Of a DNA stretch of 64,000 nucleotides, positions 1 to 58,427 are shown piece by piece. Position 1 is the first letter of the stretch, and every line of letters begins with the position of its first letter. Source of the stretch: Candidatus Latescibacterota bacterium (GTDB lineage: Bacteria > Latescibacterota > UBA2968 > GCA-2709665); the NCBI GenBank assembly GCA_965222075.1, contig OZ244937.1, forward strand, positions 1,024,001-1,088,000, in the 5' to 3' direction. The notes beneath the pieces are model-generated. The model did no database searches, was not told where the DNA came from, and saw only the letters and a program-made list of their open reading frames with translations. Both the position numbers and the translations under genes were made by a program.

Positions 1-3000
1 ATCCATCCGTGCATCAAAATTTGCATCCGATGAACTGGATCCAAAAGCCGCGCCAAATAACGCAAAATCAGTTTGATTGACCTCACCATCACCATTAAAA
101 TCGCATGACACAGGTGCCGTCGGTGTCGCCGAGGCACTCGCTGAGGCCGTGCCATTCCCCCCAGCGTTCACCGCCCGCACCTGGAAGGTGTATCTGGTTC
201 CATTGTTCAGACTCCTCACCGTATAACTCGTCGTGCCAGAGCCACTGCCTGAAATATCCGTCCAATCCGGCGACCAACTGCTGCCACTGTTGGTGCTCTG
301 ACGATACTGATACTTTGTGATGCTCGCATTGTTCGGGTTACTCCAACTCAACACAACCTGACCATTCCCTGCAGTCGCCGTGAAGTTCGTGGGCGCGGGC
401 GGCGGTGTGACCGGTGCCGTCGGTGTCGCTGAGGCACTTGATGAGGCCGTGCCATTCCCCCCAGCGTTCACCGCCCGCACCTGGAAGGTGTATCTGGTCC
501 CATTGTTCAAGCTCCCCACCGTATAACTCGTCGTGCCAGAGCCACTGCCTGAAATATCCGTCCAATTCGGCGACCAACTGCTGCTGCTACTGGTGCTCCG
601 ACGATACTGATACTTTGTGATGCTCGCATTGTTCGGATTGCTCCAACGCAACACAACCTGACCATTCCCTGCAGTCGCCGTGAAGTTCGTGGGCGCGGGC
701 GGCGGTGTGACCGTGACCGGTGCCGTCGGTGTCGCTGAGGCACTTGATGAGGCCGTGCCATTCCCCCCAGCGTTCACCGCCCGCACCTGGAAGGTGTATC
801 TGGTCCCATTGTTCAGACTCCTCACCGTATAGCTCGTCGTGCCAGAGCCACTGCCTGAAATATCCGTCCAATCCGGCGACCAACTGCTGCCACTGTTGGT
901 GCTCCGACGATACTGATACTTCGTGATGGTCGCATTGTTCGGGTTGCTCCAACGCAGCACAACCTGACGATTCCCCGCAGACGCCCTGAAGTTCCCAGGT
1001 GCCGACGGCCGCGTAACAGGCGCCGTCGGTGTCGCTGAGGCACTTGATGAGGCCGTGCCATTCCCCCCGGCATTCACCGCATGCACCTGGAACGTGTATG
1101 CGGTCCCATTGTTCAGACTCCTCACCGTATAACTCGTCGTGCTGGCACCACTGCCTGAAATATCCGTCCAATTTGGTGACCAACTGCTGCCACTGTTGGT
1201 GCTCCGACGATACTGATACTTCGTGATGGTCGCATTGTTCGGGTTGCTCCAACTCAACACAACCTGACGATTCCCCGCAGACGCCCTGAAGTTCGTGGGC
1301 GCGGCAGGCCGCGTGACAGGTGGGGGCGTGACCGTGACCGGCGCCGTCGGTGTCGCTGAAGCACTCGCTGAGGCCGTGCCATTACCCCCGGAATTCACCG
1401 CATGCACCTGGAACGTGTATGCGGTCCCATTGTTCAGACTCCTCACCGTATAACTCGTCGTGCCAGAGCCGCTGCCTGAAATATCCGTCCAATCTGGCGA
1501 CCAACTGCTGCCACTGTTGGTGCTCCGACGATACTGATACTTCGTGATGGTCGCATTGTTCGGGTTGCTCCAACTCAACACAACCTGATGATTCCCCGCA
1601 GACGCCCTGAAGTTCGTGGGCGCGGCAGGCCGCGTGACAGGTGGGGGCGTGACCGTGACCGGCGCCGTCGGTGTCGCTGAAGCACTCGCTGAGGCCGTGC
1701 CATTACCCCCGGAATTCACCGCATGCACCTGGAACGTGTATGCGGTCCCATTGTTCAGACTCCTCACCGTATAACTCGTCGTGCCAGAGCCGCTGCCTGA
1801 AATATCCGTCCAATCTGGCGACCAACTGCTGCCACTGTTGGTGCTCCGACGATACTGATACTTCGTGATGGTCGCATTGTTCGGGTTGCTCCAACGCAGC
1901 ACAACCTGACGATTCCCCGCAGTCGCCGTGAAGTTCGTAGGCGCAGACGGCGGTGTGGCCGTAACCGATGCCGTGACCGTGACCGAAATCGGCTGCGTGG
2001 CCGTCAAGGCCCCGTCGCTGGCCGTCACCGTAATGGTCGCGCTGCCTGCGGCCACCGGCGTCATCGTTACCGTGCTTCCCGATACGCTCACCGTCGCGAC
2101 GGATGCCGCCGACGTCGTGGCCGAATAGGTCAGACTATTCCCATCGGAGTCGCTGAACTTGCTCGACACGTCAACCGATGCGGCGGCTCCACCCACCGTC
2201 AGCGATTGCGCGCTAATGGACCCCACCGCCTTCGGCGGGTCATTCACCGCAGTCACCGTCACCCTCACCGTTGCCGTTGCCGTGCCACCATACCCATCCG
2301 ACACGAGATAGACGAAGCTGTCCGTCCCATTGAAATTGGTATTGGGCGTGTACGTGATGCTCCTCCCGGTCGAAGTTACGGTACCGTTCGACGGAATGGA
2401 CGTAGCGATCACGGTCAGCGGGTCACGTTCCGGATCGCTGTCGTTGTCCAGCACGCTGATGGTCGCGGCCACGTCTTCATCGGTCGTCGCGTCGTCATTC
2501 CCCGCCGTCGGCTCCTGGTTGACACCGGAAGGCGTCACTGCCGATGCAACGGACAGCGCGATGGCATCAACGCCGATCCATGCATTTGTGCTATCTGAAT
2601 TTCCATCCATACCAACAATTCTTGCCTCGCTGCCATCATATGCAGAAACATCCCACGTATATTTGGTGAAATCGTCCGTTCCCGGCGCAAAAGTCCGTCG
2701 CTTTGTTGTCCAACTGCCATTTTCTAATACCTGCAATGCGACTGTATTCTGGTTGCGGGATACGGAGCTGTCGTATCCGCACACCTTGAGATTGATATAC
2801 GGCCTATAGATGACAAAGGAATTGGAGGTCAACGTTCCCGTGCCGGTCTGTGGATCATAACTGCCCGCGCTATGTGTGCCTACCTCCCCCACTTCCGATG
2901 AGTCGTTATAACTCCGATACGTATTGTCCTGCGCCCAGGGCCCGGTGGCCGTCCAGGAAGCCAGGGTTGTATCCGCGCCACTCACACTCACCTCTTCCAT

Positions 3001-4836
3001 ATTGCCATTTGCCAGGGCATTTGCCAGGGTGCCGTGAACGGTAAAGTCCATCACGGCCTCACCGGGCTCACAAGGAAACCATCCTAAAGACTGGCCGCCC
3101 ACAGTGAAGACTCGATATACAAACGTCCTCACGTCACAGCCAGTTGTTGTTATGGTCCCCGGAACGGGGCCGGTCCAGGGTAGGCCATAGTTTGGATTTG
3201 CCGCACCGAATCCCTGCGTAGTTGGATTGCCCCACACCTCAGGGGGAGAAGAGAAGGTTACACCAAAGGATACCGACTCTCGAATCTCATGTTGTCTTAC
3301 CGCATAACTACGACTAGAAATTGAATCTGGAAAATCAACCAGCGTCATTGTTCGCTTCGTCAGGCCGACATCCATACCGGTCGTAGACTGGTGCAGAAGC
3401 ACATAGGGCGGTGTGAGCATATCCAGGGCTTTTTTGGCATCGAGCAAGCCATGTCCCGAGGTTTCATCAAAGCCTGTGTCCTGAATATCCCTGGCGCTCC
3501 GTTTGATGATTTCATAGACATCTTCATTGGTCAGGTCTTCATTGAACAGCTCCTTATAATAGGCTAACATCAGACCGGCGGTACCGCTCACGTGCGGCGT
3601 CGCAAATGAAGTGCCGCTTCTACGAACATAGGAGTCGATGTTGCCAGTCACCGGAATATTCTCTCCTGGAGCCGCAACATCAATATGAGGACCCGAACTC
3701 GAACCTTGGGTGGGGCGCTCCGAATCCTGCCACCTGACGTCATAATTGCCATGGGCAGTAGCGCCAACGGCTAACACGTGTTGTTGATACGCTGCAGGGT
3801 ATAGAGGTCGAGGGTCAAAGTAAAAATTTCCCATGCCAGCCACAGTGGCGATGCCGAGCTTATATGCATCGCCGATCGTCTTTCTAACAACAGAGCTACT
3901 TGTAGTATCAGCCCAACTACAGTTGATAATGTCCGCACCACCTTCTACGGCCTCCCGAATTTTCCTGGCAACTTCATCGTCACTAACTGGATTGTCAATC
4001 GTAGAAGCAATGTTTTTGGATATAATGGTTGCATGCCAGTCAACGCCGGCAATGCCGATGCCATTATTCGTATTTGCGGCAGCGATCGAGGCCACCTCAG
4101 TCCCATGCCCATTCCATCTTGGGGGGGTGTTATCTCCAGTGAGTTTGCCGGCAAATTCGAGATGTGACTGGTGAACACCCCCATCGATAATGGCGATCAC
4201 TGTTGAGGGGTCACCTTTCGAAAGATCCCAGGCTTCCGGCGCTCTGATGCGATCCAGGTTCCACTGAGGGCCAGGGAGCGTCGTCCCGCGAAAATAGGGA
4301 TCGTTGGGCACGGCCTGGGGATAAACAAATCCATTTGGTTCCGCAAATAAAACCCCGGGCAGGCTTTTCAGTTCCTCACAAATCGCTGCGATGTCGGCGT
4401 CGGACGGGAACCTGAGCTTGTAAATTCTGCTGTAATCGTGGAGAACGACAGATCGCCCGGTTCGATGTGAAACTCTTACACGATCAAAAGCAGGGTTAAA
4501 GGTTGGGAATACCTTCATCAGACGTTCGGGGGAATGTCGGGTAAGCAAATTCTTGTAAGCCGGCTCGACCTTCTCGCTATTCTGAAATTCAAGCCATTCG
4601 GCTACCACCTTGCCTTCCGGAAAGTCCATGAATCCAGGGGCTACCTGAATCAGTACTTCCCGGGCTACCTGCTCGGGTGTCGATATAAGAAAGGAAGGCG
4701 TTTCACTTGGAGGAACATAGGGACGTTGGGCATTTTCAGAGGCAAATATCCCCGCACACCATGCCAGAATAGAACAAAGCAGGGTAACGCAGAATGGCAA
4801 TGGAAGGGTATTTGGGGTATTCCTGGCGTTTATCAT
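1..4836 (-). CDS. Secreted S8 (subtilisin-like) serine protease with propeptide, Ig/cadherin-like domains, 6 FN3 repeats and C-terminal dockerin/EF-hand-like module; runs off the left edge
   Basis: Manual translation from ATG 4836 (MINARNTPN...) shows no stop to position 1. Catalytic triad motifs are VIAIIDGG, WNGHGTEVAS and SGTSFATPHV, with oxyanion GMGN. Also NDDATTDEDV..YTPNTNFNGTDSF (Big_9-like) and terminal DFNGDGEVNQTDFALFGAAFG. Not in the ORF track. Confidence 0.93.
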   Translation of the reverse strand, partial: MINARNTPNTLPLPFCVTLLCSILAWCAGIFASENAQRPYVPPSETPSFLISTPEQVAREVLIQVAPGFMDFPEGKVVAEWLEFQNSEKVEPAYKNLLTRHSPERLMKVFPTFNPAFDRVRVSHRTGRSVVLHDYSRIYKLRFPSDADIAAICEELKSLPGVLFAEPNGFVYPQAVPNDPYFRGTTLPGPQWNLDRIRAPEAWDLSKGDPSTVIAIIDGGVHQSHLEFAGKLTGDNTPPRWNGHGTEVASIAAANTNNGIGIAGVDWHATIISKNIASTIDNPVSDDEVARKIREAVEGGADIINCSWADTTSSSVVRKTIGDAYKLGIATVAGMGNFYFDPRPLYPAAYQQHVLAVGATAHGNYDVRWQDSERPTQGSSSGPHIDVAAPGENIPVTGNIDSYVRRSGTSFATPHVSGTAGLMLAYYKELFNEDLTNEDVYEIIKRSARDIQDTGFDETSGHGLLDAKKALDMLTPPYVLLHQSTTGMDVGLTKRTMTLVDFPDSISSRSYAVRQHEIRESVSFGVTFSSPPEVWGNPTTQGFGAANPNYGLPWTGPVPGTITTTGCDVRTFVYRVFTVGGQSLGWFPCEPGEAVMDFTVHGTLANALANGNMEEVSVSGADTTLASWTATGPWAQDNTYRSYNDSSEVGEVGTHSAGSYDPQTGTGTLTSNSFVIYRPYINLKVCGYDSSVSRNQNTVALQVLENGSWTTKRRTFAPGTDDFTKYTWDVSAYDGSEARIVGMDGNSDSTNAWIGVDAIALSVASAVTPSGVNQEPTAGNDDATTDEDVAATISVLDNDSDPERDPLTVIATSIPSNGTVTSTGRSITYTPNTNFNGTDSFVYLVSDGYGGTATATVRVTVTAVNDPPKAVGSISAQSLTVGGAAASVDVSSKFSDSDGNSLTYSATTSAASVATVSVSGSTVTMTPVAAGSATITVTASDGALTATQPISVTVTASVTATPPSAPTNFTATAGNRQVVLRWSNPNNATITKYQYRRSTNSGSSWSPDWTDISGSGSGTTSYTVRSLNNGTAYTFQVHAVNSGGNGTASASASATPTAPVTVTPPPVTRPAAPTNFRASAGNHQVVLSWSNPNNATITKYQYRRSTNSGSSWSPDWTDISGSGSGTTSYTVRSLNNGTAYTFQVHAVNSGGNGTASASASATPTAPVTVTPPPVTRPAAPTNFRASAGNRQVVLSWSNPNNATITKYQYRRSTNSGSSWSPNWTDISGSGASTTSYTVRSLNNGTAYTFQVHAVNAGGNGTASSSASATPTAPVTRPSAPGNFRASAGNRQVVLRWSNPNNATITKYQYRRSTNSGSSWSPDWTDISGSGSGTTSYTVRSLNNGTRYTFQVRAVNAGGNGTASSSASATPTAPVTVTPPPAPTNFTATAGNGQVVLRWSNPNNASITKYQYRRSTSSSSSWSPNWTDISGSGSGTTSYTVGSLNNGTRYTFQVRAVNAGGNGTASSSASATPTAPVTPPPAPTNFTATAGNGQVVLSWSNPNNASITKYQYRQSTNSGSSWSPDWTDISGSGSGTTSYTVRSLNNGTRYTFQVRAVNAGGNGTASASASATPTAPVSCDFNGDGEVNQTDFALFGAAFGSSSSDANFDARMD
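117..1950 (-). repeat. Six tandem ~300-321 bp coding repeats (fibronectin type III domains)
   Basis: Units start at ~117, 417, 723, 1023, 1344 and 1665. Each encodes approximately APTNF..AGN.QVVL.WSNPNNA.ITKYQYR..WTDISGSG..TTSYTV..LNNGT.YTFQV.AVN. Confidence 0.95.
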
Positions 4837-5310
4837 CGGACCACAACCTCCTTTCTCAAAACGGAACCGTCTGGCTGAGACACCAAAAAGATCCAGGTGC
4901 CAACCCTCAGAGGAGGATAAATCACCAGGGGGGGATACCCCCGCATCTCACTCAATGCGAGGGGACAGATACCGGTATATCGTCGTCCCCATACGCTCAC
5001 TTTGTACCCGACCAGATCAATTCTCGTCGTGTCAAAATGAGAAAAAACGGGACATCCATAGGGGCCAATCCCGCCCAAAAATCCTACGTTCATGCGTATC
5101 AGTGACCGCCAATGGAGATGTCGTTGGCTGCAGCCGGATGAATTCACCGTGCCCAGAGCCCCGAGAGAGAGACAAAACCGCCACGCTGTCGACTTTGATT
5201 TGAAAATCCCGAACATCAGGGTCCGACTTAAGAGGGTAATAATCGCACCCCAGGCAGGTGAGACCCATCAGGACCGTCAACGAGACAAAGACCGAGATTT
5301 TCTTCTGCAT
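4833..5310 (-). pseudogene. Small lipoprotein copy A (putative protease inhibitor), frameshifted by a 1-bp insertion at ~5095
   Basis: N-half in ORF 5032..5310 and C-half in ORF 4833..5216. It reads catgcgtatc where copies B/C read catggtatc. Lipobox LTCLGC; TGA overlaps the protease ATG (ATGA). Confidence 0.8.
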
Positions 5311-5655
5311 GACAGATACTCCTTCTGGGTTGTCCAGAGTTCAGGAAACACATTAAAAGTCCGCAAAAACCGTGCCAATTTTGTAAAAAATGGATAAATG
5401 ATTGCAGGAGAGGAAATTAGAGCAGATGGGGAACGATTTGAATTTTTCCGGTATTGTTGCATAATGCGCCTAATCAAGCGCACGGGGAATGCATACTCGC
5501 TCAGACGGAGTGGGATAGGTATCTATTTATAAATGACTTACGGAAGATATGAGGAAGGAGAGACAGAGGAGAGTTGCAATTTGCAATAGAAGACGCAATT
5601 TGCAACAGTAGGGAAGGGTGCCGCCGACCGTCTCGGAGGCCGTTGAAAGGGGTTA

Positions 5656-5748
5656 TCAAGATATACGTCGGGCCGATGGCGGCCCCGGGCGGGAGCCTGC
5701 TCGGGTGTCGATATAAGAAAGGAAGGCGTTTCGCCTGCTGGCGTTCAT
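5656..5748 (-). pseudogene. Deleted stub of the protease 5' end downstream of lipoprotein copy B
   Basis: ATGAACGCCAG followed by gaaacgccttcctttcttatatcgacacccgagcagg, nearly identical to ~4668-4704. The internal ~115 bp are missing and the frame stops after ~30 codons. Confidence 0.8.
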
Positions 5749-6230
5749 CCTCGGACCACAACCTCCTTTCTCAAAACGGAACCGTCTGGCTGAGACACCA
5801 AAAAGATCCAGGTGCCAACCCTCAGAGGAGGATAAATCACCAGGGGGGGATACCCCCGCATATCACTCAATGATTGGGGACAGATACCGGTATATCGTCG
5901 TCCCCATACACTCACTTTATACCCGACCAGATCAATTCTCGTCGTGTCAAAATGAGAAAAGACGTAACACAAAGTGGGTCCAAGCGGGGCATAAAATCCT
6001 ATGCGCATGGTATCAGAGACCGCCAATGGAGATGTCGTTGGCACCCGTCGGATGTATTCACCGTGCCCAGGTTCAAAGACCCTCAAGGGAGACAAAACCG
6101 CCACGCTGTCGACTTTGATTTGAAAATCCCGAACATCAGGGTCCGACTTAAGAGGGTAATAATCGCACCCCAGGCAGGTGAGACCCACCAGGACCGTCAA
6201 CGAGACAAAAACCGCGATTTTCTTCTGCAT
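5745..6230 (-). CDS. Small lipoprotein copy B (putative protease inhibitor/partner), 161 aa
   Basis: MQKKIAVFVSLTVLVGLTCLGC lipoprotein signal; paralog of copies A and C; purine-rich RBS upstream. Confidence 0.85.
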   Translation of the reverse strand: MQKKIAVFVSLTVLVGLTCLGCDYYPLKSDPDVRDFQIKVDSVAVLSPLRVFEPGHGEYIRRVPTTSPLAVSDTMRIGFYAPLGPTLCYVFSHFDTTRIDLVGYKVSVWGRRYTGICPQSLSDMRGYPPLVIYPPLRVGTWIFLVSQPDGSVLRKEVVVRG

Positions 6231-6337
6231 GACAGATGTTCCTTTCTCCTTCCTCTCCTGAGCATCAGACCCTCTGCGCCAGACACACCCTCCTGCTTCT
6301 TTCAACGCAACGACCAGGACCCACGATAATCCGGATC

Positions 6338-8494
6338 CTATTCAGCGGACTGTGGGAACAGCACAAGCGGCGCACCTGCGGCGATCCGGATGCCATCGTA
6401 GGAAACACTGCCATCATCGTACACTGGTATCTCAGGCGCAGCACCCAAACTGACCGTAGTCGGTCCGGCCCCGGTCTGGGTCACCACAACGGGTTCGCTC
6501 TCGGTGTGACCCGATGAAATCGTAGCCGTCGTGACCGACAGGGTTCCTGCCTGCGCCGACAGGGTGACGGTCATGTCGAACGGCGCACCCTCGGCAAGTG
6601 TGACCACGATGGTGGCGGGACCCGGTGCGGCATTATCCCTGTTGTCTGTGCGTTGCAGTTCCATCGTCAAGGTAAAAGGAGATCCAGGGTTATTGTCAAG
6701 CCATAGCACCTTCAGCTTGTCCAGGCCGAAGAACATACTGTCAGGCAGTGTACTCAAATTGTTGTGGCTAAGATCCAGCGCGCGCAAGCTGTCCAGGCCT
6801 GAGAACGCACCCTTATGCACTGTGCTCAAAGCGTTGTTGAAAAGCCATAGCGCTTCCAGCCTGTCCAGGCCGGAGAACACACCTTCAACCAGTGTGCTCA
6901 AATCGTTCTCGTCAAGCAACAGGACTCTCAGTCTGTTCAGACCTGAGAACGCACCCTTATGCACCGTGGTTAAAGCGTTGTGGGAAAGCCATAGCATTTC
7001 CAGCCTGTCCAGGCCGGTGAACACGCCTTCAACCAGTGTGCTCAAATCGTTGTCCTCAAGCCTCAGCGTGCGCAAGCTATCCAGGCCGGTGAACACACCG
7101 TCAACCAGTGTGCTCAAATCGTTGTCCTCAAGCCTCAGCGTGCGCAAACTGGACAGGTCGGAGAACACACCTTCCGGTAGCGTGCTTAAAGCGTTCTCGT
7201 CAAGATACAGGGTTCTCAGTCCGGACAAGCCGGAGAACACACCATCAGGCAGTGCGCTCAGATCGTTGTCCTCAAGCTTCAGCGTGCGCAAGCTATCCAG
7301 GCCGGAGAACACACCATCAGGCAGTGCGCTCAGACCATTGCTGCGTAGCCCCACCCTTTGCAGACTGGACAGGTCGGAGAAGACGCCTTCAGGTAGCGTG
7401 CTCAGACCGTTATAGGAAAGCGCCAAACCTTTCAAATTGGACAGGCCGGAGAACACACCCTCGGGCAGTGTGCGCAGACCGTTGTAGCGAAGCTCCAGGA
7501 CTTGAAGGCTGTCCAGGCTTGCGAATACACCCTCAAGCAGCGTCGTCAGCTTATTTTGAGAAAGCTCCAGTCCTTTTAGACCGGACAGGCCAGAAAGATC
7601 AGCCTCCTCCAGGGCAGTGATACACGCCTCACCAAGATACAAGCCTGTGATCGAGGAGAGTTGCTCCGTCGTGGCCAGGGCACAGTCATCAACAGCAGAC
7701 AGCACCCTCAAGATGGCATCGCGGACCTGCGGGGTCCGGTTGCAAATCCCCATCGTGATGACGTCCACCGCTTTGCCAAAGTTTCTGGCAAAGATTTCAA
7801 AATCTCCAAATCCAATAGCGCCATCGCCGTCCAGGTCGAACCTGGCGTCGAAATCTTCATCACCTGAAGACTTCCCAAACTCAGCCGCGAACGCGACGAA
7901 ATCCGAGAAACCGACCGTCCCATCGTCATCGAAATCCGACATGGCGGCTCCTCCAAACCCATTGTGACCGCCATGGTGAGAACATCCAAGGGAAATAATG
8001 CCATTGGGTTCTGCAAACACAACCCCCGGGAGGCCCTGCAGATCCTCAGAAATAGCTGTCCGGTCGGCTCCAGGCGGGAACCTCAACTTGTATATCCTGC
8101 TGTAATCGGAAAGAACAACCTGATGCCCCGTTCGGGAAACGATCACCCTGTCGGTCGTGGGGTCGAAGTTAGGAAATGCCTTGATCAGAATTTCCGGAGC
8201 ATATCTGTCAAGCACATCTTTTAAAGCCGGCGCGACATTCTCGAATTCATGCCACTCGGCTACCACCTTGCCTTCCGGAAATTCCATGAATCCAGGTGCT
8301 ACCTGAATCAGTACTTCCCGAATGACCTGCTCGGGTGTCGATATAAGAGAGGAAGGCGTTTCACTTGGAGGAACATAGGGACGTTGGGCATTTTCAGAGG
8401 CAAATATCCCCGCACACCATGCCAGAATAGAACAAAGCAGGGTAACGCAGAATGGCAATGGAAGGATATTTGGGGTATTCCTGGCGTTCATCAT
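6338..8494 (-). CDS. Chimeric secreted protein: S8-type signal/propeptide + dockerin/EF-hand-like module + ~13 typical-type LRRs + Ig-like C-terminus
   Basis: First ~165 aa are paralogous to the protease N-terminus up to FAEPNG. Then DFDDDGTVGFSDF..DLDGDGAIGFGDF and 24-aa LxxLxLxxNxLxxLPxGVFxGL repeats. Confidence 0.9.
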   Translation of the reverse strand: MMNARNTPNILPLPFCVTLLCSILAWCAGIFASENAQRPYVPPSETPSSLISTPEQVIREVLIQVAPGFMEFPEGKVVAEWHEFENVAPALKDVLDRYAPEILIKAFPNFDPTTDRVIVSRTGHQVVLSDYSRIYKLRFPPGADRTAISEDLQGLPGVVFAEPNGIISLGCSHHGGHNGFGGAAMSDFDDDGTVGFSDFVAFAAEFGKSSGDEDFDARFDLDGDGAIGFGDFEIFARNFGKAVDVITMGICNRTPQVRDAILRVLSAVDDCALATTEQLSSITGLYLGEACITALEEADLSGLSGLKGLELSQNKLTTLLEGVFASLDSLQVLELRYNGLRTLPEGVFSGLSNLKGLALSYNGLSTLPEGVFSDLSSLQRVGLRSNGLSALPDGVFSGLDSLRTLKLEDNDLSALPDGVFSGLSGLRTLYLDENALSTLPEGVFSDLSSLRTLRLEDNDLSTLVDGVFTGLDSLRTLRLEDNDLSTLVEGVFTGLDRLEMLWLSHNALTTVHKGAFSGLNRLRVLLLDENDLSTLVEGVFSGLDRLEALWLFNNALSTVHKGAFSGLDSLRALDLSHNNLSTLPDSMFFGLDKLKVLWLDNNPGSPFTLTMELQRTDNRDNAAPGPATIVVTLAEGAPFDMTVTLSAQAGTLSVTTATISSGHTESEPVVVTQTGAGPTTVSLGAAPEIPVYDDGSVSYDGIRIAAGAPLVLFPQSAE
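6688..7660 (-). repeat. 72-bp tandem LRR-coding repeats
   Basis: Recurrent tccaggccg..gaacacacc and gtgctcaaatcgttgtcctcaagc units. Confidence 0.9.
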
Positions 8495-8979
8495 CGGACC
8501 ACAACCTCCTTTCTCAAAACGGAACCGTCTGGCTGAGACACCAAAAAGATCCAGGTGCCAACCCTCAGAGGCGGATAAATCACTAAGGGGGGAGATCCCT
8601 CCATTCTAAGCACTCTGAGGGGACGGATACTACTCCTGAGATCATCTTTCCCCCATACGCTCACTTTGTACCCGACCAGATCAATTCTCGTCGTGTCAAA
8701 ATGAGAAAACCCGTAAGCTCCAGTGGGGCCAACCCAACCATAAAATCCTATGCGCATGGTATCAGAGACCGCCAATGGAGATGTCGTTGGCACCAGCCGG
8801 ATGTATTCACCGTACCCAGGTACAATGACCCTCAAGGGAGACAAAACTGCCACGCTGTCAACTTTGATTTGATTATACCGAAAATCAGGGGCCGACTTAA
8901 ACGGGTAATAATCGCACCCCAGGCAGGTGAAAGCCATCAGGACCGTCAACGAAACAAAAACCGCGACTTTTCCTTGCAT
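8491..8979 (-). CDS. Small lipoprotein copy C, 162 aa
   Basis: MQGKVAVFVSLTVLMAFTCLGC; same framework as A/B; ATGA overlap with the LRR chimera. Confidence 0.88.
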   Translation of the reverse strand: MQGKVAVFVSLTVLMAFTCLGCDYYPFKSAPDFRYNQIKVDSVAVLSPLRVIVPGYGEYIRLVPTTSPLAVSDTMRIGFYGWVGPTGAYGFSHFDTTRIDLVGYKVSVWGKDDLRSSIRPLRVLRMEGSPPLVIYPPLRVGTWIFLVSQPDGSVLRKEVVVR

Positions 8980-9249: not shown

Positions 9250-9281
9250 GGCCCAGGGACAGCGGGCGCTGTCCCTGGGCC
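9250..9281. terminator. Perfect GC-rich inverted repeat (candidate terminator or REP-like hairpin)
   Basis: GGCCCAGGGACAGCG-GG-CGCTGTCCCTGGGCC downstream of the 9330..10160 gene; no U-tract. Confidence 0.5.
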
Positions 9282-9329
9282 AGTTCATGAGGAGGGTGTG
9301 AACAGCCCTCATTTTCTTGAGACCTGAGG

Positions 9330-10160
9330 TTATTCGACCACCACCAGCACCGCCTCTCCCCGCAGGATTTCGTTGACAATGATGACGTGGGTGATGCCCT
9401 CGCTCACTCCCAACATATAGTCCTGTCCCTTTTTCAGCTTGCCCGAACGGCCGATCAACTCCTTCAGTTTCTGACCCGGATTCAGGGGCAGTGGCTCGCC
9501 GATGGTGAGGATTTTGACCTTGTAATCGTCGTGTCCAGGTTTCTGGACCAGTTTGTACCCTTTGCGGAAGAAGCGGCGGCCCGTCTCCAGGAATCCATCC
9601 TCCTTGAGACGATTCTCCGTGCCCACCACCACGCGCACCGCGGTTTTCGCCTGGTCGAGTTCCGCTTTCGTTCTTTCGATATTCTTATTGGCCTCGTTCA
9701 ACTCCTGCGACAACTGCAGGGTGAGGTCTCTCTGTTCGCGCAGGGCGGCGGTGAGGCTGTCCGACTCGATGATGAGCCGGTCGATTTTCGTTGTGTCGGC
9801 CTCCTTCTCCTCCTGCAGCAGGCTGATCGCCTTCTCCAACTTCACGTTCAGAAGCCGGCGTTTCTCGGCTATAGCGCGGTATTTCTTCACCTCTTTCTGG
9901 AGTTGCTGATTTTTCTTTTGCAAGAGCATCTCGAACTTGGTGAGGCTGTCGAGTTGAGCCTTCAGCGTGACGAGTTGGGCCTGGGAACTGCCCGCCTCGT
10001 ATTCGAGCGATTCGATGCGGGCACTGCTCTCCTCTATCTTTGCGGTGAATTCCCGTTTCTGCTTCTCCAACTCGCTTTCTCCGCAGGCGGTCAGGCCAAC
10101 AAAGAGGAGCAGGGATAGGGAAAAACCGGAAAAAACCGTCTTCATCTGACCATCTCCCAT
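9330..10160 (-). CDS. Coiled-coil lipoprotein, function unknown
   Basis: Lipobox VGLTAC; long heptad-rich helix; globular C-terminus. Confidence 0.8.
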   Translation of the reverse strand: MGDGQMKTVFSGFSLSLLLFVGLTACGESELEKQKREFTAKIEESSARIESLEYEAGSSQAQLVTLKAQLDSLTKFEMLLQKKNQQLQKEVKKYRAIAEKRRLLNVKLEKAISLLQEEKEADTTKIDRLIIESDSLTAALREQRDLTLQLSQELNEANKNIERTKAELDQAKTAVRVVVGTENRLKEDGFLETGRRFFRKGYKLVQKPGHDDYKVKILTIGEPLPLNPGQKLKELIGRSGKLKKGQDYMLGVSEGITHVIIVNEILRGEAVLVVVE

Positions 10161-10241: not shown

Positions 10242-12437
10242 TCAGTTTGACGAAGTTTTTTTGCCTGCCTGTGCCGTGCCCGTCACGGCAGACAGGCCGA
10301 AGTTGTTGGCAAAGATCACAAAATCGCCAAACCCGATGGTGCCGTCCCCATCCAGATCGTACCGCGCATCATACCCCGCATCGTCCTGGCTTAACCCGAA
10401 CCGTGCTGCAAAGATCACAAAATCGCCAAAGCCAACGGTCCCGTCGCCGTCGAAGTCCGGATCAGGGGTTTGAGGGGTGATAAACGGCGACACGTCCCAC
10501 AACAAAATCGTGCCATCCTTTGAGCCGGATGCCAGTGTCGCCTCGTCGGGCGAAAACGCCACGGACCAGATCACATCCCGATGCCCGAACGCAGCCATCC
10601 GTTCGTGCGTCACCACGTCCCACAACCGCACCGTGCTCCCCATGCCCTCCGCTTTCTCTATTGTCGCGACAGCAAGCAGCAACCCATCCCGGGAAAACGC
10701 TACGGAAGTGATGTCCCGCTGACTCTTGCCAACGATCGCGATCGGTTCTCGCGTCGCCATCTCCCACAGCAACGCCGTGCCGTCACTTGACCCGGAGGCG
10801 AGCAGCTTCCCATCAGGCGAAATCGCCACGGATTGAACAAAATCCGTATGCTCTTCCAGGGTGGCGATATTTTCTCGCGTCGCCACATCCCACAACTTGA
10901 CTGTACCGTCCTCAGACCCGGAAGCCAGGGTGGCTCCGTCGAGCGAAAATGCTACCGAATTGACCCCACCAGTATGCCCTTCCAAGGTGGCGATACTCTC
11001 TCGCGTCGTTACATCCCACAGCTTGACCACGCCCACTGACCCTCCGGTAGCCAGGGTGGTGCCGTCGGGAGACAATACCATCGAATGAAGGAACCTACTC
11101 GGCTCTTCCAGGGTGGTGATGTCCTCTCGCGTCGCCACGTCCCACAACTTGACCGACCGCCTTGACGCGATGGCAAGCACCTTCCCATCCCGTGCAAACG
11201 ACACCGAATGGGACGGGCCCGCAGGGTGGGCGATCTCTTTCCGTGTCTCTACGTCCCACAGGATCACGCCGTCCCAGCCGGCAGAGGCGAGCGTGGTACT
11301 GTCGGGCGAGAACGTCACTGAACTGACGAAATCCGTATGTCCTTCAAGGGTAGCGATACGGTATGGCGAGATTTCCTCAAGCACAAAAGACGTAGAGCCC
11401 AGATTGCCATCCGCATCCACGGCCAGGATAGAAATCGGATGCCGTACAGGATCGGAAAGGCTCGTCCGGTAGAGGAAAAAAGAATAGTGGTCATCTCGGT
11501 CGGTAGACGGAATCACACCGTCATACTGGAACTCCACGACGGGGTCTTTGTCGCCCGCCATGCTACGACATGCCTTCACTTCCAAACCTTGAGGGCCATC
11601 AACCAAGAGAAAGACTTGGTGTAGCCCCGCCGAGGCGCTGATATTGAGTCGGACGGCGACGCTCAGTGATTCTGCCGGATAGGTACGTGGCGACAGGAGG
11701 TCAAGAGTGGGCGGCGGCCCCTCTCCGGTAGGGGTATCGGGATTGAAGTAGGGATGTACCGCCAGAAACTCGGCGTGGCAGGCCGATAATTGATACCTTC
11801 CCGGGCCATACGACATGAGGTAGGCACCGTCGCTGAAGTCGTGCCTCAAGCCGAAGGCGTGACCCAGTTCATGGGCCACCAGCCTAAACGATAAAGCTTC
11901 GTCTTCAACAAACACAAATCCGCCGTTTTTCCCTTGTCTGACTCCGAACGCGGCATGGTAGTTTATCGCAGCGCCGATGAGATAGACGTTCGCATCAAGG
12001 TCAAACGCCTGTCCAAGTTCGTCAATCACACGACTTGGATTTTCATTATGACCGTCCACGCGATGCACCAGCGGCTCGCCCTGCGCATCGGTTTCAAACT
12101 GAAAGGTCCTGTCCCCGTAGCCATTCGCTTGCATCTGCTCGGCATAGAAAGTCTGAACCCGGCGCATTACGACCTTCATCGAATCCACCATTTCTTGTCG
12201 AAATGGGCGATCACTCGGCAGGAAGTAGATCATCCGCACCGTGCGGGGTTCACCCGCGTTCAGATCCCCCAGCGGCTTGGCCGCAGGGCGGGGATGGTCC
12301 CGCCGCCACTGCTCGTGGTCGAAGGCGCAAAAGTGCACACTGTCGGCCGGCGGGGACGAAGCAGCACTGACGGCCATCGGCGAGAGGACGAGGCCGATTA
12401 ACGCGAGAAAAGCGGAATGCAGAACGGACTTTTTCAT
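10242..12437 (-). CDS. Secreted metzincin-like metalloprotease + WD40 beta-propeller + dockerin/EF-hand-like domain
   Basis: Signal peptide; HELGHAFGLRH (HExxHxxGxxH) with YLMSYG Met-turn; repeated GH..V.SVAFSPDG..LASG..D..V.LWDV; DFDGDGTVGFGDF-like loop x2. Confidence 0.9.
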   Translation of the reverse strand: MKKSVLHSAFLALIGLVLSPMAVSAASSPPADSVHFCAFDHEQWRRDHPRPAAKPLGDLNAGEPRTVRMIYFLPSDRPFRQEMVDSMKVVMRRVQTFYAEQMQANGYGDRTFQFETDAQGEPLVHRVDGHNENPSRVIDELGQAFDLDANVYLIGAAINYHAAFGVRQGKNGGFVFVEDEALSFRLVAHELGHAFGLRHDFSDGAYLMSYGPGRYQLSACHAEFLAVHPYFNPDTPTGEGPPPTLDLLSPRTYPAESLSVAVRLNISASAGLHQVFLLVDGPQGLEVKACRSMAGDKDPVVEFQYDGVIPSTDRDDHYSFFLYRTSLSDPVRHPISILAVDADGNLGSTSFVLEEISPYRIATLEGHTDFVSSVTFSPDSTTLASAGWDGVILWDVETRKEIAHPAGPSHSVSFARDGKVLAIASRRSVKLWDVATREDITTLEEPSRFLHSMVLSPDGTTLATGGSVGVVKLWDVTTRESIATLEGHTGGVNSVAFSLDGATLASGSEDGTVKLWDVATRENIATLEEHTDFVQSVAISPDGKLLASGSSDGTALLWEMATREPIAIVGKSQRDITSVAFSRDGLLLAVATIEKAEGMGSTVRLWDVVTHERMAAFGHRDVIWSVAFSPDEATLASGSKDGTILLWDVSPFITPQTPDPDFDGDGTVGFGDFVIFAARFGLSQDDAGYDARYDLDGDGTIGFGDFVIFANNFGLSAVTGTAQAGKKTSSN
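10264..10296. mobile_element. 33-bp CCTG..CAGG palindromic element inserted in-frame
   Basis: cctgcctgtgccgtgcccgtcacggcagacagg adds LSAVTGTAQAG between FG and KK of the dockerin-like tail. Confidence 0.6.
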
Positions 12438-12457: not shown

Positions 12458-12919
12458 TTATAGATCCTGAAGATGTGTGAAGTTAACTGCGGCGGATGAA
12501 TCTTTTGCCAGAGCTGCGCGATAAAGATCAAAATCGACAGTGATCAACGGCCTTTCAGCCGTGACAACCTCCAGGAGCACCGCGTCGGCCAGCCCAAGCC
12601 GTCTGAACTCACTGTTGCGCGAAGCGTCCGTACTTGCAACGACGATCTCCTCGCTTTCCTGAATGATGAACCGGAGCCTGTCGAAGAAGCGGGAACGCTC
12701 CGGATCCGCATGTTGAGCGAGCAGATTGGATGTTTCGGTCAGCGTGTTCGGCGTTACGAACACCCGGGCAACCCTGGCAAGCAGTTTGAGCAAACGCTCG
12801 TAATCTTCCGCGGCAAATCTTTGCAGCCGACGATGCTTGAGGATCAGATCTCGATCTACACTGCCCACCACGAGCAGCACGAGAAGATTCGCGTCAATGA
12901 AGAACCCGGCCGGGGTCAT
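12458..12919 (-). CDS. PIN-domain protein (putative toxin)
   Basis: FFIDANLL, TPNTLTETSNL, GLADA and LITVDFDL acidic PIN motifs. Confidence 0.85.
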   Translation of the reverse strand: MTPAGFFIDANLLVLLVVGSVDRDLILKHRRLQRFAAEDYERLLKLLARVARVFVTPNTLTETSNLLAQHADPERSRFFDRLRFIIQESEEIVVASTDASRNSEFRRLGLADAVLLEVVTAERPLITVDFDLYRAALAKDSSAAVNFTHLQDL

Positions 12920-12923
12920 CGGC

Positions 12924-13205
12924 TTATTCCGAAGCCGTCAGGACGCGATCCTTGACAGATACGACACGACCGTCATGGTCATGGATGCGAACGACCTTAT
13001 AGGAGCGTGCTGGAGATCCCTCACCAAACGTAGCGCTGATAACGTTTTTATGGTCCCACGGCCGAGAGAAGCCGATGGTTATTTTCCAATCATTTGACAT
13101 GGCGTCAAAGTCAATCTCCTCAAGGCCGACATTCGTGATCTCTTCACCGGCGAAGAGTTCGGTAAGGTATTCTTTCGCCTTCTGCGCGGCTTCTTTTACG
13201 TCCAT
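12924..13205 (-). CDS. Small hypothetical protein upstream of PIN (putative antitoxin)
   Basis: 93-aa ORF with RBS GGAGG, ending 4 bp before the PIN gene. Confidence 0.75.
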   Translation of the reverse strand: MDVKEAAQKAKEYLTELFAGEEITNVGLEEIDFDAMSNDWKITIGFSRPWDHKNVISATFGEGSPARSYKVVRIHDHDGRVVSVKDRVLTASE

Positions 13206-57865: not shown

Positions 57866-58323
57866 TGGAAAATGTTGTCGTAGATAGCAGTGTGGCGATC
57901 AAGTGGTTTGTGGTGGAACCCCATTCGGATGAAGCCCGAAAGATTCTGGATGGATACAAGGCCGGTAACATTAATCTTCTCGCTCCGGACCTGATCAATG
58001 CAGAAGTCGGCAATATCGTGTGGAAAAAACACCGACTTCAGGATTTGAGTACTACGGATGCTCAAGAAATCATCGATACATTCCGAACCATCATCTTCAC
58101 CCTCACGCCGAGTGCTGTTTTACTGGGTGAGGCCTATCATTTGGCCGTCACACACGAACGCACGGTTTATGATATGATGTACGTTGCCCTGAGTAAGCGA
58201 GAAAGCTGTCGATTTGTGACTGCCGATGAACGGATGGTCAATGCGATAGGCAAGAGCTTTTCAGATATGCTATGGGTGGCCGACTGGTCTGGAAGTATTG
58301 ACCCTGCTGGAAGCTCTGAATGA
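57865..58323 (+). CDS. vapC: VapC PIN-domain toxin
   Basis: VVDSSVAIKW, APDL..AE, VYD..YVAL, VTAD. Confidence 0.9.
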   Translation: MENVVVDSSVAIKWFVVEPHSDEARKILDGYKAGNINLLAPDLINAEVGNIVWKKHRLQDLSTTDAQEIIDTFRTIIFTLTPSAVLLGEAYHLAVTHERTVYDMMYVALSKRESCRFVTADERMVNAIGKSFSDMLWVADWSGSIDPAGSSE

Positions 58324-58328
58324 TGTAG

Positions 58329-58427
58329 CTACGGGGAAACCGGCTTAAAAGGGTAATATTCGCACCCCAGGCAGGATAGCCCCATCAGGACCGTCAACGA
58401 GACAAAGACCGAGATTTTCCTCTGCAT
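58329..58427 (-). pseudogene. Truncated fourth copy of the small lipoprotein
   Basis: MQRKISVFVSLTVLMGLSCLGCEYYPFKP then stop; DNA nearly identical to 5230-5318, and the upstream leader resembles that of copy B. Confidence 0.85.

Follow-up and report, generated by a model that had tools for sequence, protein, structure and literature searches.

A duplicated lipoprotein gene overlapping a secreted S8 subtilase gene in a Latescibacterota bacterium, and its candidate role as a subtilase inhibitor

Partner proteins of secreted peptidases and effectors

Standard-mechanism inhibitors of subtilases include the Streptomyces subtilisin inhibitor (SSI), with its Cys-Pro-X motif, as well as eglin c and inhibitors of the Kazal type, and stand-alone propeptide inhibitors of subtilases form the MEROPS I9 type. 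Polymorphic toxin systems are exemplified by Rhs, CdiA and MafB. Also among the closest known systems to the locus described here are the PF27154 YB1M β-sandwich lipoproteins and the NigD-like C-terminal domains. In the sections of the published account drawn on here, the potempins of Tannerella forsythia are OB-fold or eight-stranded barrels that are 4–14% alike, their KLIKK partner peptidases are of a different family for each potempin and carry a type IX tail, potempin C (PotC) inhibits the S8 peptidase mirolase via a disulfide-tied loop, and orphan lipoproteins are noted as well (PMC9890683).

We compared these systems with a locus of a Latescibacterota bacterium, a phylum in whose sponge-associated members LRR, FN3 and WD40 proteins are reported in the portion of the study used here (PMC12993501). 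Judging by its domain content, the genome analysed here may belong with those members. By the window we mean the whole stretch of DNA analysed, 64,000 nucleotides, and by G000 the genome that contains it. In the potempin/KLIKK system the stop of a small lipoprotein gene overlaps or adjoins the beginning of the gene for a secreted peptidase, and here too the two genes overlap (ATGA at positions 4833–4836), the adjacent copy being frameshifted. Judging from the predicted structures, the pair would most likely work like PotC, on the β-sandwich scaffold of a widespread lipoprotein family.

An array of lipoprotein genes in front of S8-type leaders

The lipoprotein gene, coding for about 160 residues, is present in three copies, A, B and C, on the minus strand of positions 1–8979, and the reading of the first-pass annotation that each copy ends in an ATGA stop/start overlap is confirmed at 8491–8494, 5745–5748 and 4833–4836. 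Copy C (8491–8979, minus strand, 162 residues) is intact and has the loop R-P-L-R-V, with both loop cysteines lost; copy B (5745–6230, minus strand, 161 residues) is an intact orphan with the loop C-P-Q-S-L; copy A (4833–5310, minus strand), directly upstream of the S8 protease gene, has the loop C-P-L-A-L and is frameshifted by one extra base near 5095, in addition to a 6-nt in-frame deletion. The frameshift is not a long-read error, because a 204-base short-read contig over 4995–5198, from a run that is possibly the source sample, is identical to the window with zero differences. Intact natural relatives of copy A, P0001 and P0350, carry the loop C-P-L-A-V, and the cluster of copy C has eight members counting copy C itself, six alleles of which were read and found intact with the R-P-L-R-V loop. 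An isolated 5′ fragment of a further copy is matched at 58296–58427 (minus strand).

The DNA of copies A, B and C is 85–92% identical, far above chance. Among these and copy D, which lies outside the window, the last 120 bases differ by 0–2 per 40, and two internal blocks by up to 19 per 40. A Shine-Dalgarno-like AGGAGG (4837–4852, minus strand) sits in the last lipoprotein codons, 10 nt ahead of the next ATG; it is also found in copies B, C and D and at G000:800551, would work as a ribosome site and so probably accounts for the conserved 3′ tail. An AlphaFold2 model of copy B is all-β, with a mean pLDDT of 94.5. The lipobox-position Cys is present in at least 90% of 150 alignment rows, and both loop cysteines in 137 of the 150, one of them in 5 and neither in 8, copy C being among the latter. 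Paralogues B and C share a conserved scaffold (pN 0.04, pS 0.12).

The S8 subtilase gene (1–4836, minus strand; 1634 residues, ending 68 nt outside the window) encodes a signal peptide, a prodomain up to residue 174, a catalytic domain, two Ig-like domains, six FN3 repeats and a dockerin-like tail. It matches the Pfam S8 family at 7e-39 and thermitase at 6e-34, and the alignment with thermitase shows catalytic residues D218, H244 and S410 as well as N337 to be intact; with its Asp/His/Ser triad, oxyanion Asn and N-terminal prodomain the protein is a thermitase-like S8A subtilase. Domain scans found no Por secretion tail at the C-terminus, which ends in the FN3 repeats and the dockerin-like domain. 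P0038 is a full orthologue, 66% identical, in which Glu stands in place of the expected catalytic Asp (IVEGG versus IIDGG) and the FN3 repeats number two versus six. P0038 and lipoproteins P0018 and P0021 all list 803,759 bases as their longest contig, which is suggestive of linkage between protease and lipoproteins.

The leader common to the genes behind the lipoprotein copies, earlier described as one shared sequence, is a true S8 prepro-region, that is, a signal peptide plus an S8 prodomain: its alignment with the prodomains of five related S8 proteins runs over the full length, and two profile matches point weakly the same way (Pfam Fervidolysin_NPro-like, 0.024; Atlas Peptidase_S8_N, 0.89, a lead only). 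Behind copy C it opens a fusion of 718 residues (6338–8494, minus strand), consisting of the signal peptide, a complete S8 prodomain (about residues 32–168), a dockerin-like twin EF-hand (about 187–240), an LRR solenoid and a C-terminal domain, so arranged that the prodomain stops where the S8 mature domain would start. Pfam matches LRR_8 at 6e-79 and Dockerin_1 at 0.057, and no protease domain. Three genomes, G000, G002 and G020, have the fusion in intact form; another one, without a lipoprotein copy upstream, is present in G002 (G002:C4). The prodomain dN/dS is 0.14–0.26 for the G000 fusion against those of G002, G020 and G002:C4 (dS above 1) and 0.39 for G002 against G020, while the LRR part gives 0.26–0.28; by these ratios the fusion prodomain is under purifying selection. 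The number of LRR repeats is variable, as contigs of runs X3 and X5 skip one 72-base unit at 7028–7101, and related alleles of the fusion have 694 versus 718 residues.

The genome holds 35 ORFs with a dockerin-like motif in shuffled contexts, 8 of which also have a WD40 motif. At G000:549846-551120 lies a dockerin-LRR paralogue whose signal peptide is a plain one; it may represent the family that donated the LRR payload. ORFs beside this paralogue (G000:C1:551489-552831) resemble by eye a cohesin-type domain and a FlgD-like tail and are a possible partner of the dockerin-like domains.

Three payloads had originally been proposed: a giant S8 protease, a dockerin-LRR protein and a deleted stub. 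The first two stand, and the third, behind copy B, is an out-of-frame deletion scar of 30 codons (5656–5748, minus strand), which retains about 11 + 37 nt of the leader. The same scar is found outside the window, where the array continues from the S8 gene to a serpin gene, a broken copy D with copy B's scar behind it and an HExxH-WD40 gene. Part of copy B, the scar and the intergenic block (5311–5655), most of which was duplicated along with the lipoprotein gene and the scar, resemble the copy D unit at G000:1021021-1021683 (85% over 678 nt), and the scar is therefore likely to be a single deletion that was later copied. In contigs of runs X1, X2, X5 and X6 the DNA found downstream of the scar adjoins a longer remnant of the leader, and at G000:800551 a leader-LRR relic is preceded by no more of the lipoprotein gene than its final 21 nt. 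Copy D is polymorphic, since the break (L128:4559) shows four additional bases in a contig of run X2, and X7 matches the broken form. The boundary of a duplication is marked by a 192-base copy (95%) of the 3′ end of the gene for a 276-residue coiled-coil protein (9330–10160), which lies directly after the S8 gene; the two occurrences of this repeat are at window positions 9264–9454 and at G000:C1:1023688-1023879.

The serpin gene (G000:C1:1022074-1023336, equivalent to L128:5075-6337) lies to the left of the window, 0.6 kb downstream of the S8 gene. Its product matches Pfam at 5e-98, has a lipoprotein-like N-terminus and finds its closest relatives in G001 (88%) and G058 (78%). Genes for HExxH metallopeptidases with WD40 and dockerin-like parts are present on both flanks of the array (window 10242–12437 and G000:C1:1018403-1020985), and at 12458–13205, on the minus strand, are two short genes, of which the one of 153 residues looks PIN-type by eye, with a small upstream partner.

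Predicted complex and variability of the interface

The complex was modelled from S8 residues 175–476 (alignment of 40 rows) and residues 30–160 of P0001 (150 rows), an intact allele of a relative rather than copy A itself, its loop CPLAV being the nearest to CPLAL of copy A. The score is 0.93 in three runs and 0.07 in the best of three controls, contacts agree to at least 88% among runs and the partner has a pLDDT of 86; of 157 solved complexes 116 reach the mark used for the score, as do 2 of 215 mismatches, and these counts are only approximate with the alignments used here. In the model P0001 Leu119 contacts S410, N337 and the S1 wall (expected error 0.4–0.6 Å), residues 118 and 120 contact H244, and further contacts are made by lipoprotein residues 82–87 and a clade-specific hairpin, 53–61. 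Since Leu119 sits at S410 and N337, residues C117-P118-L119 would be P3-P2-P1. The P0001 loop is predicted to occupy the cleft as a substrate would, its P1 residue at the catalytic Ser and oxyanion hole, in line with the initial idea of a loop docked in the S8 active site. The Cys-Pro-X loop, with X as P1, would be tied to a neighbouring loop by a predicted disulfide, and the predicted P1 residue is Leu in copies A and C, Gln in B and Phe in D. Across the wide family Asp is the commonest residue at the P1-equivalent position (28 of 140), and Asp is unusual as P1 of a subtilase inhibitor.

Solved subtilase–inhibitor complexes are well represented, and structure matches of S8 include 1TEC, 2SIC and mirolase (8EHE), so the pass of the model may reflect likeness to these abundant structures. 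The pass does not show S8 to be the cognate or natural target.

Entropy in 26 close, non-independent sequences averages 2.20 bits over the 21 interface positions versus 0.91 over the 110 others, and the difference persists among coil positions (2.24 bits at 14 interface positions versus 0.82 at 33 others), so that the predicted interface varies more than any other part of the close family. Across six sequence pairs pN is 0.268 and pS 0.244 at the interface, versus 0.079 and 0.103 in the rest; these six pairs give no significant excess that would indicate positive selection at the interface (Fisher p = 0.30), and the elevated pS points to exchange of blocks or to relaxed constraint.

Genomic linkage of the lipoprotein family

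The lipoprotein family is widespread and unannotated, with 180 representatives at 50% identity, and its named hosts include Bacteroidota, Ignavibacteria, WOR-3 and Marinimicrobia. Within the window's phylum 8 of 168 genomes have matches: full copies in G000, G002, G020 and G058, a fragment in G003 and three weak N-terminal matches. Reading by eye the DNA of 18 close junctions in the four genomes, we found an overlapping start in 17 and a recognisable leader following in 15. The intact payloads behind a lipoprotein copy are S8 once and LRR three times, and the sole S8-adjacent copy seen directly is the frameshifted copy A. At least six lipoprotein–leader junctions (L029-L034, L061) are scattered on two contigs of G058, none of the six with an intact payload and several adjoining transposase-like ORFs; the four leaders that are readable far enough all have the S8-type QNSEK insert, and the genome retains a catalytic-region relic, 68% identical to S8 residues 448–526. 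G002 and G020 have three intact, diverging lipoprotein copies each, and a search of both for the S8 catalytic domain gave nothing beyond a conserved S8 at about 40%. That duplication leaves orphan copies behind, as the first-pass annotation proposed, is thus seen here and in G002, G020 and G058. Its other proposal, a unit re-loaded with new payloads in the manner of polymorphic toxins, fails: S8 and dockerin-LRR, the latter without a protease, are the sole payload types found behind the leader in any genome, in a survey that covered proteins of 394–1257 residues, missed P0038 and is to that extent incomplete.

Nor do homologues in the wider family mostly lie upstream of proteases, as had been expected. 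We collected 73 distant loci, about 68 of them distinct: 43 came from 86 pattern matches, and 30 from a set of 401 genomes that gave 39 matches in 36 of them. No locus has an S8 gene beside the lipoprotein family member. The Pfam scan of the distant neighbours comprised 83 proteins, with one N-run ORF excluded, and then 56 further ones, with four duplicate loci excluded, and showed no S8; an S8 profile matched 10 ORFs in these loci, all 10 of which have a secretion-tail domain by Pfam and none an S8 domain. Peptidase neighbours are M54 upstream in three loci (same gene order), MA-2/PD40 downstream in two and a PfpI gene upstream in one, and a trypsin-like gene with His, Asp and Ser motifs lies downstream of the lipoprotein gene in three similar loci of one clade. 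At these three (L165, L168 and L171; about 450–1990) members with a C-I/V-Q loop stand some 55 bases upstream of the trypsin-like gene, which shows no evident signal peptide and no Pfam match at 1e-6; they possibly represent an independent inhibitor–protease pairing. Around related S8 genes, a lipoprotein gene was found at none of 12 loci in the 401 genomes, the loci spanning up to 1.5 kb past the match.

Proposed function, rival readings and comparison with known systems

With reasonable but far from full confidence, we propose that the lipoprotein is a membrane-anchored, standard-mechanism subtilase inhibitor, encoded in overlap with the secreted S8 enzyme and restraining it at the envelope. 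A lipid-anchored inhibitor would be made in step with the secreted subtilase and, by analogy with the potempins, would block enzyme that matures near the envelope. As the protease's own upstream copy is dead in this genome, copy B, copy C or the serpin would act in trans.

The copies might instead form a general shield against proteases of hosts or competitors, diversified by loop exchange, with the S8 link incidental and the serpin and the displayed prodomain as further inhibitors of the island. We regard this as unlikely, while allowing it a modest chance. It would suit a family that is mostly stand-alone and whose loops are still changing between orthologues of G002 and G020, genomes without a match to this protease (the loops of one such pair differ by 8 non-synonymous and 1 synonymous changes), and PotA, in the sections of the potempin account drawn on here, inhibits a host enzyme too (PMC9890683). 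However, almost all of the close clade overlaps with the S8 leader, the excess of pN over pS is not significant, and the serpin neighbour is weak evidence because serpins are present in 52 of the 168 genomes of the phylum.

The lipoprotein might also assist maturation or anchoring by recognising the prodomain, a role like that of PrcB/PrcA in dentilisin; it would then stay with the leader whatever the payload, which would agree with the lipoprotein–prodomain-LRR order being intact in G000, G002 and G020 and with selection on the fusion prodomain. We think this improbable: the model puts the variable loop into the catalytic cleft, a conserved prodomain ligand leaves the hypervariable surface unexplained, the G002:C4 leader-LRR gene has no copy upstream, related S8 genes do without the lipoprotein, and for dentilisin (PrcB-PrcA-PrtP) itself the PrtP model scores 78.4 bits versus a curated cut-off of 300. 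Also improbable is the reading in which the repeats are passive, the lipoprotein tail being a ribosome site copied together with a secretion leader amid domain shuffling, and the copies decaying with no joint function. The motif does lie within the last codons, just those 21 nt are left at G000:800551, the dockerin-motif ORFs including the dockerin-LRR paralogue are shuffled, and two of the four full copies here are broken, with no intact payload behind the six G058 junctions; yet the B/C scaffold is conserved, the alleles read in the copy C cluster are intact and the complex model passes with clean controls.

If the lipoprotein is a subtilase inhibitor, its history may be pictured as follows. 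A stand-alone lipoprotein family would have been recruited upstream of an S8 gene in one lineage, and the unit then duplicated repeatedly, carrying along its near-identical 3′ end, ribosome site and signal peptide. Most duplicates would have lost their payload or broken, so that orphan inhibitors with different P1 residues remain, and in an old side branch a dockerin-LRR protein would have replaced the catalytic part at the maturation site, with the prodomain kept by selection. A bolder version, which we hold to be doubtful and offer tentatively, is that the wider family represents canonical serine-protease inhibitors of a new structural kind, of which the present locus is a loop-swapping array, and that the fusion prodomain serves as a tethered second inhibitor or as a cleavage tag for subtilase activation of the adhesin-like LRR protein. 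Were these proposals true, a large lipoprotein family that has no name would gain a function, a reactive bond and a P1 residue, the bacterial subtilase inhibitors would be extended by a β-sandwich scaffold, and the potempin arrangement would prove to have arisen a second time, outside Tannerella. The prodomain-LRR fusion poses the question of what role a complete protease prodomain has without its protease. All the parts are small and expressible without culturing the organism.

Among the known systems, polymorphic toxins share with this locus a constant N-terminus, duplicated cassettes and orphan partner genes, but there are two payload types only, one of them non-toxic, the partner gene is upstream rather than downstream, and the orphans carry leader scars, not spare toxin tips. 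The fusion is like an I9-type propeptide inhibitor in keeping a complete prodomain without a catalytic domain, under purifying selection, and differs in that the prodomain is the N-terminal part of a dockerin-LRR protein. The standard-mechanism inhibitors of subtilases are approached by the extended loop of the model, in which Cys takes the P3 and Pro the P2 position; the lipoprotein differs from them in its lipid anchor, and they appear neither as sequence matches in the PDB at E up to 10 nor among the top 50 fold matches.

As far as sequence can tell, the lipoprotein–S8 pair is not a member of the potempin/KLIKK system. The S8 enzyme lacks the type IX C-terminal domain of KLIKK peptidases, and profiles A1 and A2 searched against the PDB matched no potempin chain at E up to 10, which is weak evidence because the potempins themselves are so little alike; the first-pass annotation's analogy without homology holds in this sense. 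Unlike the potempins, the inhibitors here would be near-identical paralogues of one family, with a predicted β-sandwich fold, facing a single S8 enzyme whose tail is dockerin-like, and the leader also opens a protein that is no protease. What the pair would have in common with PotC and mirolase is a disulfide-tied reactive loop in the S8 active site, here as a prediction of the model.
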